DNA of 64,000 nt from Escherichia coli (GCF_003334335.1 NZ_QOWQ01000001.1), one strand, 5' to 3'; counted from the stretch's first letter, positions 38,627 through 46,753 are shown. The notes: generated from the letters alone by a model not told the origin. A program made the numbers and translations.

Positions 38627-41497
38627 TTATATTTTTTCCAGCGCAGTGAGTATTTTCTCCGGTGTGAAATGCCATTCGCGTAACCAGATGCCGCATGCAT
38701 CGTGAATTGCGGTAGCAATCGCCGGAGCTGCGCCATTTACACCGATTTCCGAGATCGATTTCGCCCCGAACGGGCCGACTTTATCGTCGCTCGGCACCAG
38801 CACAGCGCGGAAATCACGCGGAATGTCACCAATTTTCGGTGCGCCGTAACTGCGTAAATCACGCGTTAACGGGTGACCTTCGGCGTCATAAATGATCTCT
38901 TCGCTCATACTGTGGCCGATAGCACGCAGGGTGGCACCGTAGATTTGTCCCAACGCTAACTCTGGATTGACCGGTGTACCGCAGTCCAGCAAGGCGTAGA
39001 ATTTATCCAGGCGGATTTCACCCGTACGCGTGTTGACGGCAACTTCAGCGAAGTTTGCGCCATACGGGAAGGCGAAATCAGGCGTGATATAACTGCCAGT
39101 TCCCACCAGTGAACCAAAGCCGGTGCCGGTTTCGCCTTTATGGGCAATATCCCCGAAACTAACTTCGCCTTTCTTGCCGCGCACGACGCCCGGCGTTGCC
39201 AGTTGAACATCTGCCACTGGCTCACCCAACATTTGCGCGCCGTGGAACAGAATTTTCTCCCGTAGATTTTCCGCTGCCAAACGCGCCGCGTTACCCGAGA
39301 AGCAAGTACCGGACGAGGCATATGCGCCTTTATCAAACAACGCATGATCGGTATCACCGGAGATAACATGCACGTCCTGCGGTGGGCAGTGCAGCACTTC
39401 TGCTGCCAGTTTCGTCACTACAGTATCCAGACCAGTACCAATATCCGCACCGCCAGAATGAACGATAAAGGTGCCGTCCGATTCCAGTTTGATCATGCAG
39501 TTAGCCTGATCGATATCCGGGATACCCGATTTCTGCATGATAATGGCGACGCCGCGACCGATGTGCCAGTCACCATTTTGCGGTTTCGGTGACGACCATT
39601 GGATCATCTCGCGACCCTGACGCAGGATCTCTTCCAGTGCACAGCTGGCGGCGGAAGGAACGGAGGTCGGCGCTTTACCTTCACCGATTGCACCGAGAAT
39701 TTTCAGCTCTTGCCCTTCGTGTACCCGGTTACGTTCGATAATTTCCAGTTGGTCGATCTGTAACTGTTCAGCCAGTTCCGCTAATGCCATGGTGATAGCG
39801 AAGTTACCTTTCGGTGCGCCATAACCCTGATAAGCACCATTTGGGCAAATGTTGCTGTAGTAGGTGGTGACCTGGAAATCGACGTTATCGCACGGATATA
39901 ACGGCAGCGACAGCGCCGGTCCGTTACACGGTACGGTGAGTGAGTGGTTGCCGTAAGGGCCAGTGTTGGCGCGGAAATCCATCTTCACTGCCGTCAGGCG
40001 ACCATCTTTTTTCGCTCCCAGTTTGACGGTGACTTTCGCGACGTGACGAGAGGTGTTAGCAATAAACTCTTCTTCACGGGTGTAGCGGAACAGTACCGGA
40101 CGCCCGGTCACGCAGGTTGCCCAGGCGCACACTTCTTCCAGCAGGATGTCCTGTTTGGAACCAAAACCGCCGCCAACTCGCTCTTTAATGACATGAACTT
40201 TATGCTGTTTCATGCCCACGAGGCGCGCGACCTGGCGGCGTAAGTGCCATGGTACCTGGGTGGAGGCGTGGATAACCAGACGATCGCCGTCCATACGAGT
40301 AAAGCAGATATGTGTTTCAGTCGGGCACTGCTGCGCTTGCGTTGAGTTATAGGTTCGCTCAATGATCACATCGGCATCGGCAAAGCCTTTGTCCATATCG
40401 CCAATATGACCATGAATACTGGCGGCGATATTTTTGCGAGGGCGAGAACCGATCGGGAAGTTGATGATCATATGCTCGCCGCGCTGGGCTGCATGGCTGT
40501 TATCGTCTTCCAGAGTATCTGGCGCACCAGCAACATACACCACCGGTTCATCGTGCACGACAGGCGCATCTTCCGCCATTGCTTCGTCGATCGACATTAC
40601 CGGCTTAAGCACTTCATATTCAACGTCGATGAGCTTCAGTGCTTCGAGCGCAATTTCTTCACTTTCTGCGACGACCGCAGCAACACGATCGCCGACGTGA
40701 CGCATTTTCTTGCCGAACATACGGCGGTCAAGCGGTGACGGTTCCGGTGCGCTCTGACCACCCGGGGTATAGTAGATATCCGGGCAATTCAGGTGAGTAA
40801 TAACGTGAACGACGCCCGGTAAGGCTTCAGCTTTGCTGACATCCAGATGAGTAATCAGTGCGTGAGCGTGTGGGCTACGTAACATTTTAATGACGCAGGC
40901 GTCAGCCGTTACGCGGTCTTCAACATAGCAGGGTTTCGCCTGCACCATTTTCGCGGCATCAGTTTTAGGATAATGCTTACCAATGACTTCTAGGTCGTCA
41001 CGGAAAGTCGGAGCGATATCAATGGTGGCCTGCGGATTATTTTTACGTGCAACCGCCAGTTCAATGACCTGATAGTATTGCTGCCAGCCAGCATCGCGGC
41101 TGAACAAACCAGAAAGCGCGTCGTCGATCTCTTCGCGGGTAGGTGCGGCGATGCGATCGAGAAGATCGGTGATAATCAGAGCTGCAGCTGGATCGTTATA
41201 ACCAGACTGCACCACGCCAACATCAACCATTGCCTGTTGAACCAGACTTAACTCGTTCCATTTGCCCAGAGATTCTGCGGTACGAATATCTGCCTTCTCT
41301 AACTGTGCGGCAATAAGCAAGGACGCGTTAACGATATTACCGTTAAAGATTATTGCGTCAGAACCGGCAAACCCGAAACCATCATCACTGTTGCGTACAG
41401 AGTGCATTCCCATGTTAAACAACAGCTTTTGCACGTTTTCGCCTGGATTAACGGTTAGCTCCTGAGGCGCGCCATTTAAAGTAAAGTGGATGATCAT
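38627..41497 (-). CDS. xdhD: Molybdopterin-dependent hydroxylase, fused 2Fe-2S and Mo-binding subunits (xanthine dehydrogenase family)
   Basis: ORF track 38627..41497 (-), 956 aa; N-terminal ferredoxin-like region then large MoCo-binding domain. Confidence 0.85.
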   Translation of the reverse strand: MIIHFTLNGAPQELTVNPGENVQKLLFNMGMHSVRNSDDGFGFAGSDAIIFNGNIVNASLLIAAQLEKADIRTAESLGKWNELSLVQQAMVDVGVVQSGYNDPAAALIITDLLDRIAAPTREEIDDALSGLFSRDAGWQQYYQVIELAVARKNNPQATIDIAPTFRDDLEVIGKHYPKTDAAKMVQAKPCYVEDRVTADACVIKMLRSPHAHALITHLDVSKAEALPGVVHVITHLNCPDIYYTPGGQSAPEPSPLDRRMFGKKMRHVGDRVAAVVAESEEIALEALKLIDVEYEVLKPVMSIDEAMAEDAPVVHDEPVVYVAGAPDTLEDDNSHAAQRGEHMIINFPIGSRPRKNIAASIHGHIGDMDKGFADADVIIERTYNSTQAQQCPTETHICFTRMDGDRLVIHASTQVPWHLRRQVARLVGMKQHKVHVIKERVGGGFGSKQDILLEEVCAWATCVTGRPVLFRYTREEEFIANTSRHVAKVTVKLGAKKDGRLTAVKMDFRANTGPYGNHSLTVPCNGPALSLPLYPCDNVDFQVTTYYSNICPNGAYQGYGAPKGNFAITMALAELAEQLQIDQLEIIERNRVHEGQELKILGAIGEGKAPTSVPSAASCALEEILRQGREMIQWSSPKPQNGDWHIGRGVAIIMQKSGIPDIDQANCMIKLESDGTFIVHSGGADIGTGLDTVVTKLAAEVLHCPPQDVHVISGDTDHALFDKGAYASSGTCFSGNAARLAAENLREKILFHGAQMLGEPVADVQLATPGVVRGKKGEVSFGDIAHKGETGTGFGSLVGTGSYITPDFAFPYGANFAEVAVNTRTGEIRLDKFYALLDCGTPVNPELALGQIYGATLRAIGHSMSEEIIYDAEGHPLTRDLRSYGAPKIGDIPRDFRAVLVPSDDKVGPFGAKSISEIGVNGAAPAIATAIHDACGIWLREWHFTPEKILTALEKI

Positions 41498-46600: not shown

Positions 46601-46753
46601 ACAGGTTTCACCGAAGACGCTAACAGTTTTACCTTTTACAGGTGAGTAAAACTGTTGCTCGGGAATACCAAAGATTGAGCGTTGTTGTTGGTATTCATCA
46701 AATATGCGCGTCAAAAGTTCCTCAAACGGAATGGGACGCATAATATCCCCCAT
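43655..46753 (-). CDS. ygfK: Large Fe-S flavoprotein oxidoreductase (dihydropyrimidine dehydrogenase / glutamate synthase beta-like); putative selenate-reductase-associated subunit
   Basis: ORF track 43655..46753 (-), 1032 aa; [20 protein letters not shown] dinucleotide motif; C-terminal CLECNYVCSKCVDVCP and CNECGNCAQFCP ferredoxin clusters. Confidence 0.85.
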   Translation of the reverse strand: MGDIMRPIPFEELLTRIFDEYQQQRSIFGIPEQQFYSPVKGKTVSVFGETCATPVGPAAGPHTQLAQNIVTSWLTGGRFIELKTVQILDRLELEKPCIDAEDECFNTEWSTEFTLLKAWDEYLKAWFALHLLEAMFQPSDSGKSFIFNMSVGYNLEGIKQPPMQQFIDNMMDASDHPKFAQYRDTLNKLLQDDAFLARHGLQEKRESLQALPARIPTSMVHGVTLSTMHGCPPHEIEAICRYMLEEKGLNTFVKLNPTLLGYARVREILDVCGFGYIGLKEESFDHDLKLTQALEMLERLMALAKEKSLGFGVKLTNTLGTINNKGALPGEEMYMSGRALFPLSINVAAVLSRAFDGKLPISYSGGASQLTIRDIFDTGIRPITMATDLLKPGGYLRLSACMRELEGSDAWGLDHVDVERLNRLAADALTMEYTQKHWKPEERIEVAEDLPLTDCYVAPCVTACAIKQDIPEYIRLLGEHRYADALELIYQRNALPAITGHICDHQCQYNCTRLDYDSALNIRELKKVALEKGWDEYKQRWHKPAGSGSRHPVAVIGAGPAGLAAGYFLARAGHPVTLFEREANAGGVVKNIIPQFRIPAELIQHDIDFVAAHGVKFEYGCSPDLTIEQLKNQGFHYVLIATGTDKNSGVKLAGDNQNVWKSLPFLREYNKGTALKLGKHVVVVGAGNTAMDCARAALRVPGVEKATIVYRRSLQEMPAWREEYEEALHDGVEFRFLNNPERFDADGTLTLRVMSLGEPDEKGRRRPVETNETVTLLVDSLITAIGEQQDTEALNAMGVPLDKNGWPDVDHNGETRLTDVFMIGDVQRGPSSIVAAVGTARRATDAILSRENIRSHQNDKYWNNVNPAEIYQRKGDISITLVNSDDRDAFVAQEAARCLECNYVCSKCVDVCPNRANVSIAVPGFQNRFQTLHLDAYCNECGNCAQFCPWNGKPYKDKITVFSLAQDFDNSSNPGFLVEDCRVRVRLNNQSWVLNIDSKGQFNNVPPELNDMCRIISHVHQHHHYLLGRVEV

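Follow-up and report, generated by a model that had tools for sequence, protein, structure and literature searches.

The ygfK-ssnA-ygfM-xdhD gene cluster of Escherichia coli, located at positions 38627 to 46753 of a 64,000-nucleotide stretch of genomic DNA (GCF_003334335.1 NZ_QOWQ01000001.1, the whole of which is called the window here), is with a probability of about 0.9 the operon for the entry steps of reductive anaerobic uric acid degradation, a pathway that proceeds via 2,8-dioxopurine ("yanthine"). The operon function is already published, as the same genes, which are 100% identical to E. coli records, have been described in studies of two groups, both from 2025 (Li et al., 2025, PMC12507026; Liu et al., 2025, bioRxiv 10.1101/2025.04.24.650524). 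The operon starts a route along which urate of the host is removed by bacteria of the gut, which makes it relevant to gout and hyperuricaemia, and E. coli Nissle overexpressing the cluster lowers urate in mice (PMC12507026). The residual interest of the locus is moderate and concerns three features, namely an XdhD that seems to be free of iron-sulfur (Fe-S) clusters, a possible selenium dependence of the E. coli enzyme, and a hairpin in the ssnA-ygfM spacer that is conserved in structure.

The biochemical basis of this assignment has been provided by others. XdhD has been purified from a low-copy plasmid along with a co-purifying protein of ~30 kDa, taken as YgfM, and XdhD-YgfM supplied with NADH has converted urate into 2,8-dioxopurine as detected by LC-MS, liquid chromatography coupled to mass spectrometry (Li et al., 2025, Life Metab, PMC12507026). 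In the same study, YgfK and SsnA in the presence of NAD(P)H have mainly formed ureidomethyl-hydantoin, either enzyme alone having no detectable activity on yanthine; deletion of xdhD has led to accumulation of urate from xanthine with no yanthine being formed, and no ureidomethyl-hydantoin has been made upon deletion of ygfK (PMC12507026). Liu et al. have arrived independently at 2,8-dioxopurine as the intermediate by which urate enters the pathway and have characterized E. coli YgfK as an NADPH:2,8-dioxopurine oxidoreductase that is selective for 2,8-dioxopurine (bioRxiv 10.1101/2025.04.24.650524). An earlier note on this DNA, made from the sequence alone, had regarded the substrate of XdhD and the role of YgfK as not established, which is superseded by the 2025 papers that define both. 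Its suggestion of a reductive step from urate to xanthine has come true in one half, as XdhD-YgfM indeed reduces urate with NADH; the product is 2,8-dioxopurine and not xanthine.

According to the mechanism that we favor, a sigma-54 promoter that is co-regulated with the YgeV regulon would drive transcription of ygfK-ssnA-ygfM-xdhD. XdhD, a xanthine-oxidase-family molybdoenzyme bound to YgfM, then takes the oxo group off C6 of urate, which yields 2,8-dioxopurine, and the pyrimidine ring of the latter is reduced by YgfK, with electrons predicted to pass from NAD(P)H via FAD and four Fe-S clusters to FMN. SsnA hydrolyses the reduced ring and thereby pulls the unfavorable reduction forward, and the products of the downstream genes hyuA, ygeW, ygeY, ygeX and yqeA would turn the resulting compound into pyruvate, ammonia, CO2 and ATP. 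The three enzymatic steps from urate to the opened ring in vitro, the phenotypes of the xdhD and ygfK deletions, and the binding of sigma-54 are experimental results of others (PMC12507026; bioRxiv 10.1101/2025.04.24.650524; PMC4591121).

Several points weigh against this assignment. XdhD is devoid of all eight cysteines that bind the [2Fe-2S] clusters in related enzymes, in conflict with the electron wire resembling that of xanthine dehydrogenase (XDH) in the published model. The XdhD assay has been performed with 10 μM enzyme and 1 mM NADH and substrates, and no rates have been found in its text (PMC12507026); such conditions prove the chemistry, not NADH via YgfM-FAD as the physiological or competent route. 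The nicotinamide used by YgfK is disputed, as NAD(P)H has been employed by one group (PMC12507026) and NADPH only by the other (bioRxiv 10.1101/2025.04.24.650524). Finally, urate degradation by E. coli in vivo has been reported to need formate, AegA and YgfT, a requirement that is not explained by the operon model.

The 8127 bases of the region are 100% identical to several complete E. coli chromosomes, and at least 80% of the region is held by 5169 of the 5426 complete E. coli genomes. All four genes, which bear the names ygfK, ssnA, ygfM and xdhD in RefSeq, lie closely packed on the minus strand (Table 1): 2 nt separate the TAA of ygfK from the ATG of ssnA, the reading frames of ygfM and xdhD share 4 nt (ATGA), the spacer between ssnA and ygfM comprises 50 nt, and a Shine-Dalgarno sequence is present 5-8 nt before the start codon in each case (4/4). 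For ssnA, a longer form starting with GTG at 43718 is contained in the mechanical list of open reading frames (ORFs); the form starting with ATG is covered by the SsnA family profile from its second residue on, and the same ATG is used in RefSeq. Family membership has been assigned by comparing the whole-protein score with the curated NCBIfam cut-off, which is clearly exceeded by YgfK (TIGR03315, 1779 bits, cut-off 835), SsnA (TIGR03314, 738 bits, cut-off 456, with the NF005540 cut-off being exceeded as well), YgfM (TIGR03312, 490 bits, cut-off 242) and XdhD (TIGR03313, 2123 bits, cut-off 1102).

The domain composition is in line with these families. XdhD contains MoCoBD_1 (3.8e-72), MoCoBD_2 (6.4e-68) and the a/b hammerhead Ald_Xan_dh_C (6e-31), and its best solved relative is the alpha subunit of 4-hydroxybenzoyl-CoA reductase from Thauera aromatica (PDB 1rm6, E 3.7e-80). 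YgfM, the FAD-binding subunit of CoxM/XdhB type, matches FAD_binding_5 (PF00941, 9.5e-20) and CO_deh_flav_C (PF03450, 5e-4), and its FAD motifs AGGS/T and T[IL]GG[EN] are kept across 75 orthologues. In SsnA, the Amidohydro_1 domain (PF01979, E 3e-56) carries the N-terminal HxH metal motif as H62-N-H64; the ring that the enzyme opens is the pyrimidine one of reduced 2,8-dioxopurine, with ureidomethyl-hydantoin as the main product of the coupled YgfK and SsnA assay (PMC12507026). Most of what the earlier note had read from this stretch has thus been borne out, namely four packed genes on one strand with the outer limits confirmed by the ORFs, the 2-nt gap and the 4-nt overlap, the presence of an amidohydrolase and of a large flavoprotein with Fe-S clusters beside a second molybdenum hydroxylase, on which family scores and domains agree, the HxH motif of SsnA, and the resemblance of YgfM to CoxM and of XdhD, by its Mo-cofactor domains, to CoxL. 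It had made no mention of the additional CoxS-like N-terminal domain of XdhD, which is without cysteines.

No cysteine occurs in XdhD before residue 190. Upon alignment to XdhC and to solved Fe-S subunits, the eight cluster-ligand positions have been found to be occupied by D38/39, A44, D47 and S59 and by S98, N101, S133 and D135. The ligands of the two four-cysteine [2Fe-2S] clusters expected in the xanthine oxidase family are consequently missing, with 0 of 8 positions being cysteine, and the RefSeq name "Mo/Fe-S-binding subunit" looks wrong as judged from the sequence. Homology of the domain as such is kept, as it matches Fer2_2 (6e-12) and the nicotinate dehydrogenase chain 3hrd_D (E 1.4e-17), and Desulfovibrio aldehyde oxidoreductase has also been aligned. 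The loss of the ligands is common to the 120 closest XdhD database clusters and has been seen in all XdhD orthologues examined, from about 75 loci in a set of 80 species-level genome loci, among them those of Aeromonas, Vibrio, Photobacterium, Shewanella, Endozoicomonas, Desulfobacula and spirochaetes, down to 55% identity. At ~55% overall identity, the N-terminal domain is 49-63% identical to that of E. coli, compared to 55-59% for the Mo domain, and the residues that replace the cluster cysteines are near-invariant across the orthologues examined. A decaying N-terminal domain has been ruled out on these grounds, as it is conserved like the Mo domain and its replacement residues hardly vary. 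Clusters held by non-cysteine residues have likewise been ruled out, given that none of the eight positions is cysteine and one is alanine; we know of no Fe-S cluster with zero cysteine ligands. A third idea, a compensating [4Fe-4S] cluster in YgfM, has been modelled on the one in the beta subunit of 4-hydroxybenzoyl-CoA reductase. It has been rejected because, of the four YgfM cysteines, C161 and C251 are conserved (~89%) and C143 and C145 are not, and no conserved cysteine cluster in YgfM has been found among 75 orthologues.

Fused relatives with at most 40% identity to XdhD, taken as representatives of clusters at 50% identity, keep all ligand cysteines. Two metagenomic proteins with 39-40% identity are instructive in this respect. 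P0125 (L083:547-3375) is a relative with all ligand cysteines and is preceded, with a 4-nt overlap, by a truncated gene of unknown family. In P0126 (L082:1479-4310, 39% identity), which is preceded by an FAD-subunit gene, again with a 4-nt overlap, most cysteines of the first motif are gone and the four of the second motif are kept (QCGYC...CRC). Judging from the full cysteine sets of relatives at 40% identity or less, the partial set of P0126 and the empty positions in the XdhD clade, the cysteines seem to have been lost in steps, and only in the clade of YgfM-XdhD. By text search, the loss is unmentioned in the two 2025 papers on the pathway, in a commentary, in one supplement and in earlier reviews of molybdoenzymes, and has thus apparently remained unremarked in the literature, an earlier notice elsewhere being possible.

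In the canonical path of the family, electrons travel from FAD via the two [2Fe-2S] clusters to the pterin. FAD and Mo are about 25-30 Å apart in structures of xanthine oxidoreductase, and fast electron tunnelling is limited to approximately 14 Å. With no cluster ligands in XdhD, the usual path from FAD via Fe-S to Mo cannot exist as drawn, and the remaining distance from FAD to Mo is too large for fast tunnelling. We would put just short of an even chance on the view that the YgfM-XdhD clade (TIGR03313 with TIGR03312) has kept the Mo center and the FAD subunit, has lost both [2Fe-2S] clusters, and employs a non-canonical electron route for urate dehydroxylation. A rival to the published model, which we hold tentatively and at somewhat less than even odds, would be that XdhD-YgfM is not a self-contained NADH:urate reductase and that Mo is reduced in vivo by another route. 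Candidate reductants, put forward with equal reserve, would be an Fe-S partner such as YgfT/YgfS or AegA (formate-fed), YgfK, or a second substrate in a ping-pong transhydroxylation, and the FAD of YgfM could possibly serve a structural, regulatory or slow priming function.

Such a route is favored by the absence of all eight cysteines (0/8) in every orthologue examined from a domain under purifying selection, by the lack of a compensating cysteine cluster in YgfM, by the apparently stepwise loss (all-cysteine relatives at 40% identity or less; P0126 at 39%), and by the reported requirement for formate, AegA and YgfT in E. coli. It is opposed by the finding that NADH has given product with XdhD and the ~30 kDa protein taken as YgfM (PMC12507026), and by the intact FAD motifs of YgfM and the constant position of its gene beside xdhD, both of which suggest that the flavin is used. 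Xanthine as reductant of the Mo site is made less likely by the observation that the xdhA deletion does not consume xanthine (PMC12507026), and a redox-neutral isomerisation of xanthine to 2,8-dioxopurine via bound urate is disfavored by the same result. On balance, a non-canonical electron route to the Mo of XdhD is a serious proposal whose chances come near to one half from below. If XdhD is truly Fe-S-free, the accepted electron-transfer scheme of the family would be inapplicable to it, the need for formate, AegA and YgfT may be explained, and the finding would bear on flux engineering in uricolytic probiotics.

For YgfK, the dinucleotide fold noted earlier has been located as Pyr_redox_2 at residues 552-839 with the GAGPAG motif at 557 (Pfam and motif scan). 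The two C-terminal ferredoxin clusters that had been proposed are present as cysteine motifs, C898-x2-C-x3-C-x2-C-x3-C (898-912) and C938-x2-C-x2-C-x3-CP (938-948), and are weakly scored by the ferredoxin models of Pfam (E 0.002-0.008). Two elements had been overlooked, namely a Fer4_20 domain of the type found in dihydropyrimidine dehydrogenase (DPD) at residues 453-532, in which two cysteine triplets account for two further clusters, and a predicted N-terminal FMN-type barrel. Residues 436-892 have sequence relatives in the PDB, which are NfnA, GltD and DPD. Residues 1-450 have no Pfam match (no DHO_dh), and a profile search with an alignment of the N-terminal part against PDB sequences has given no match even at E up to 10. 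A model of these residues, predicted with AlphaFold2 (AF2) from a 20-sequence alignment (pLDDT 74.6, pTM 0.80), has retrieved the FMN barrels of pig DPD and of class-2 dihydroorotate dehydrogenase (DHODH) as the top Foldseek matches (E 2e-5 to 1e-3, probability 1.0), with TM values of about 0.4-0.57 that express a likeness at the level of the fold only. By this model, YgfK would be a DPD-like enzyme whose FMN-type TIM barrel (residues 1-450) is shifted to the N-terminus, in agreement with the DPD-like layout from structural modelling by Li et al. (PMC12507026). The domain order and the electron path outlined above are those predicted from sequence and model.

Upstream of ygfK, the pattern TGGTGC-N5-TTGCT has been found at 46826-46841, with GG at -24, GC at -12 and correct spacing. 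The corresponding element, GTGGTGCGATTGTTGCT, is identical to the sigma-54 site OS31 from chromatin immunoprecipitation sequencing (ChIP-seq), which has been assigned to ygfK with a listed distance of 62 nt (Bonocora et al., 2015, PMC4591121); as counted here, the distance from the last base of the element to the ygfK ATG is 72 nt. Across the whole window, sigma-54 matches occur at chance level (47 found, 44.6 expected), so that support for the ygfK promoter comes from its position and the ChIP data. Of 51 orthologous loci, 30 have a matching element upstream of ygfK. In E. coli, the YgeV iModulon includes each of the four genes. In the same window, a one-mismatch sigma-54 element, TGGCACACTTATTGTT, is present on the minus strand at 56642-56657 upstream of ygeW and corresponds to the ChIP-seq site OS30 (PMC4591121); it is divergent from ygeV, the gene of a sigma-54 activator at 57027-58805.

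Two hairpins are predicted at the operon. The one in the ssnA-ygfM spacer has a folding energy of -20.2 kcal/mol (z -3.7), a stability reached by none of 200 shuffles. A strong stem-loop of -13 to -36 kcal/mol has been observed in 38 of 43 orthologous spacers, the sequences of which are unrelated; the structure is thus conserved and the sequence is not. The element may act as an mRNA stabiliser, a processing site, or an attenuator that puts YgfK and SsnA above YgfM and XdhD. The second, GGCCGCTTCGGCGGCC, is a palindromic GC hairpin of -13.9 kcal/mol (z -3.2) between xdhD and xanQ, which has a terminator-like score on both strands. An Rfam scan of 38300-47200 has yielded no RNA family.

Table 1. 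Genes, domains and signals at the ygfK-xdhD locus, and loci with an additional XDH-like trio
Feature	Position	Strand	Description and basis
ygfK	43655-46753	minus	1032 aa; ORF and TIGR03315
ssnA	42324-43652	minus	442 aa; ORF and TIGR03314
ygfM	41494-42273	minus	259 aa; ORF and TIGR03312
xdhD	38627-41497	minus	956 aa; ORF and TIGR03313
Cysteine-free 2Fe-2S-like domain, XdhD aa 1-165	41003-41497	minus	Alignment to XdhC and solved Fe-S subunits
Sigma-54 -24/-12 element GTGGTGCGATTGTTGCT	46826-46842	minus	Pattern match, upstream of ygfK
Hairpin in ssnA-ygfM spacer	42290-42314	minus	GC-rich; perfect stem of 11 bp with a loop of 3 nt, not followed by a T-run
Terminator-like hairpin GGCCGCTTCGGCGGCC with T-rich tail	38602-38617	minus	9 nt past the xdhD stop; consensus scan
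mocA	47075-47653	minus	Molybdenum cofactor cytidylyltransferase; TIGR03310 above cut-off, RefSeq
yqeC	47756-48526	plus	Putative selenium-dependent Mo-hydroxylase accessory; TIGR03172 above cut-off, RefSeq
yqeB	48574-50199	plus	Putative selenium-dependent Mo-hydroxylase accessory; TIGR03309 above cut-off, RefSeq
Extra XDH-like trio	L052:5136-8688; L074:4396-9229		
Extra XDH-like trio, further loci	L041, L042, L048-L050, L053, L055, L056, L064, L070, L072, L073, L079, L081		

The neighborhood raises the question of selenium, as mocA, yqeC and yqeB lie upstream of ygfK at distances between 320 nt and 3.4 kb. XdhD itself scores 300 bits against TIGR03311 (selenium-dependent xanthine dehydrogenase, Se_dep_XDH), below the cut-off of 830, and it is this family to which the clostridial 2,8-dioxopurine dehydrogenase (DOPDH) presumably belongs. 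A selenium link of these genes has been predicted by Haft and Self (2008), with a labile-selenium enzyme not observed in E. coli, and no later test of labile selenium in E. coli has been found in the literature. A selenium requirement has been demonstrated solely for the DOPDH of C. sporogenes (XdhAC), which has been purified from wild-type and selD backgrounds and has lost all activity in the latter (bioRxiv 10.1101/2025.04.24.650524). In E. coli, a selenium dependence of XdhD would be suggested by the adjacent mocA, yqeC and yqeB, by their conservation beside ygfK across many genera, and by the 2008 prediction.

Another connection to selenium is the older annotation of the operon as a selenate reductase, which survives in the RefSeq name of YgfK, "putative selenate reductase subunit", and in the NCBIfam short names Se_ygfK, Se_sel_red_FAD and Se_sel_red_Mo. 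Transposon mutants in ygfK, ygfM and ygfN reportedly lost selenate reduction, an observation that is attributed to Bebien et al. in 2002. Selenate has been neither needed by nor stimulating for purified YgfK (bioRxiv 10.1101/2025.04.24.650524), the four proteins have defined activities in the purine pathway, urate induces the genes, which form a cluster with those of transporters and enzymes for purines, and selenate detoxification had already been deemed a weak interpretation by Haft and Self (2008). We consider a selenate reductase very improbable for this operon, and the entry steps of urate degradation remain the preferred function.

The active site of XdhD also bears on the product that is formed. 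E917 of XdhD aligns with the catalytic Glu of the XdhA motif and is invariant among orthologues, while Gln557, which is equally invariant in the orthologue alignment, stands in XdhD where XdhA has the Arg of its motif GAMRGYGAP. We take this Arg to be the one that orients the substrate in xanthine dehydrogenases, corresponding to Arg880 of bovine xanthine oxidoreductase. With respect to XdhA, XdhD further contains an insertion of 11 residues (597-607) with E606, which has been proposed to orient urate (Li et al., 2025, PMC12507026), and the combination of Gln557 and the E606 insertion would suit an attack at C6 on a substrate that is oriented differently. Practically no credence is left for an XdhD that reverses the XDH reaction by turning urate into xanthine, or that is a hypoxanthine/xanthine oxidase, as might be supposed from the name "hypoxanthine oxidase" in some sources, the 33% identity to XdhA and the reduction of urate to xanthine by purinolytic clostridia (PMC12507026), because both groups have identified 2,8-dioxopurine by LC-MS against standards with xanthine only in traces, xanthine is still oxidised in the xdhD deletion and not in the xdhA deletion (PMC12507026), and the XdhA Arg is Gln557 in XdhD, which has, in addition, the extra loop with E606.

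In other genomes, ygfM is found directly upstream of xdhD in 80 of 80 loci with the flank available, usually together with ygfK-ssnA, and the order yqeB-yqeC-mocA / ygfK-ssnA-ygfM-xdhD is kept in most Enterobacterales and Aeromonas loci. In clusters of Photobacterium, Shewanella, Vibrio and spirochaetes, an extra XDH-like Mo/Fe-S/FAD trio is placed between ssnA and ygfM-xdhD (Table 1), which is ~25% identical to XdhA and has an intact Fe-S subunit. Spirochaete loci have a gene of the 8-oxoguanine deaminase family (590 bits, cut-off 532) directly before ygfM-xdhD, and the expected product of this family, urate, fits the substrate of XdhD. As a separate observation, YgfM and XdhD occur as one polypeptide in protein P0007 (1215 aa, 43 member sequences from Logan assemblies), which has PF00941 and the XdhD domains; the fusion may stem from an indel of 1 nt where the two frames share ATGA, or may be an artefact of gene calling or assembly.

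Among known systems, the YgfK-SsnA pair is most readily compared with DPD (PydA) together with the dihydropyrimidinase PydB. YgfK probably shares with DPD the cofactor modules, namely the FMN barrel, two [4Fe-4S] clusters, the FAD/NADPH domains and a C-terminal ferredoxin-like part, and it likewise reduces a uracil-like ring that is then hydrolysed by SsnA. It differs from DPD by its predicted, permuted domain order, by a barrel that is invisible by sequence, and by its purine substrate. For XdhD, the closest solved match of the Mo domain is 4-hydroxybenzoyl-CoA reductase, which we take to be the other reductive dehydroxylase of the xanthine oxidase family. That enzyme has both [2Fe-2S] clusters and an extra [4Fe-4S] cluster in its FAD subunit and receives electrons from ferredoxin, whereas XdhD is without cluster ligands and YgfM without a conserved cysteine cluster. 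The DOPDH of C. sporogenes and the "XdhD" of C. difficile catalyse the same reaction between urate and 2,8-dioxopurine at the same position of the pathway and are likewise xanthine-oxidase-family Mo enzymes. In contrast to E. coli XdhD, DOPDH has been described with Fe-S cluster-binding domains, does not use NAD(P)H, methyl viologen having been employed in its place, and needs selD, and the C. difficile enzyme has no counterpart of the FAD subunit YgfM and shares only 25.6% identity with E. coli XdhD (PMC12507026). XdhABC, encoded in the same window at 58845-62507, belongs to the same enzyme family and to the YgeV/sigma-54 regulon and serves an adjacent step of purine catabolism; it oxidises xanthine to urate, has the cysteines intact in its separate Fe-S subunit XdhC, and retains in XdhA the Arg of GAMRGYGAP, where XdhD has Gln557.

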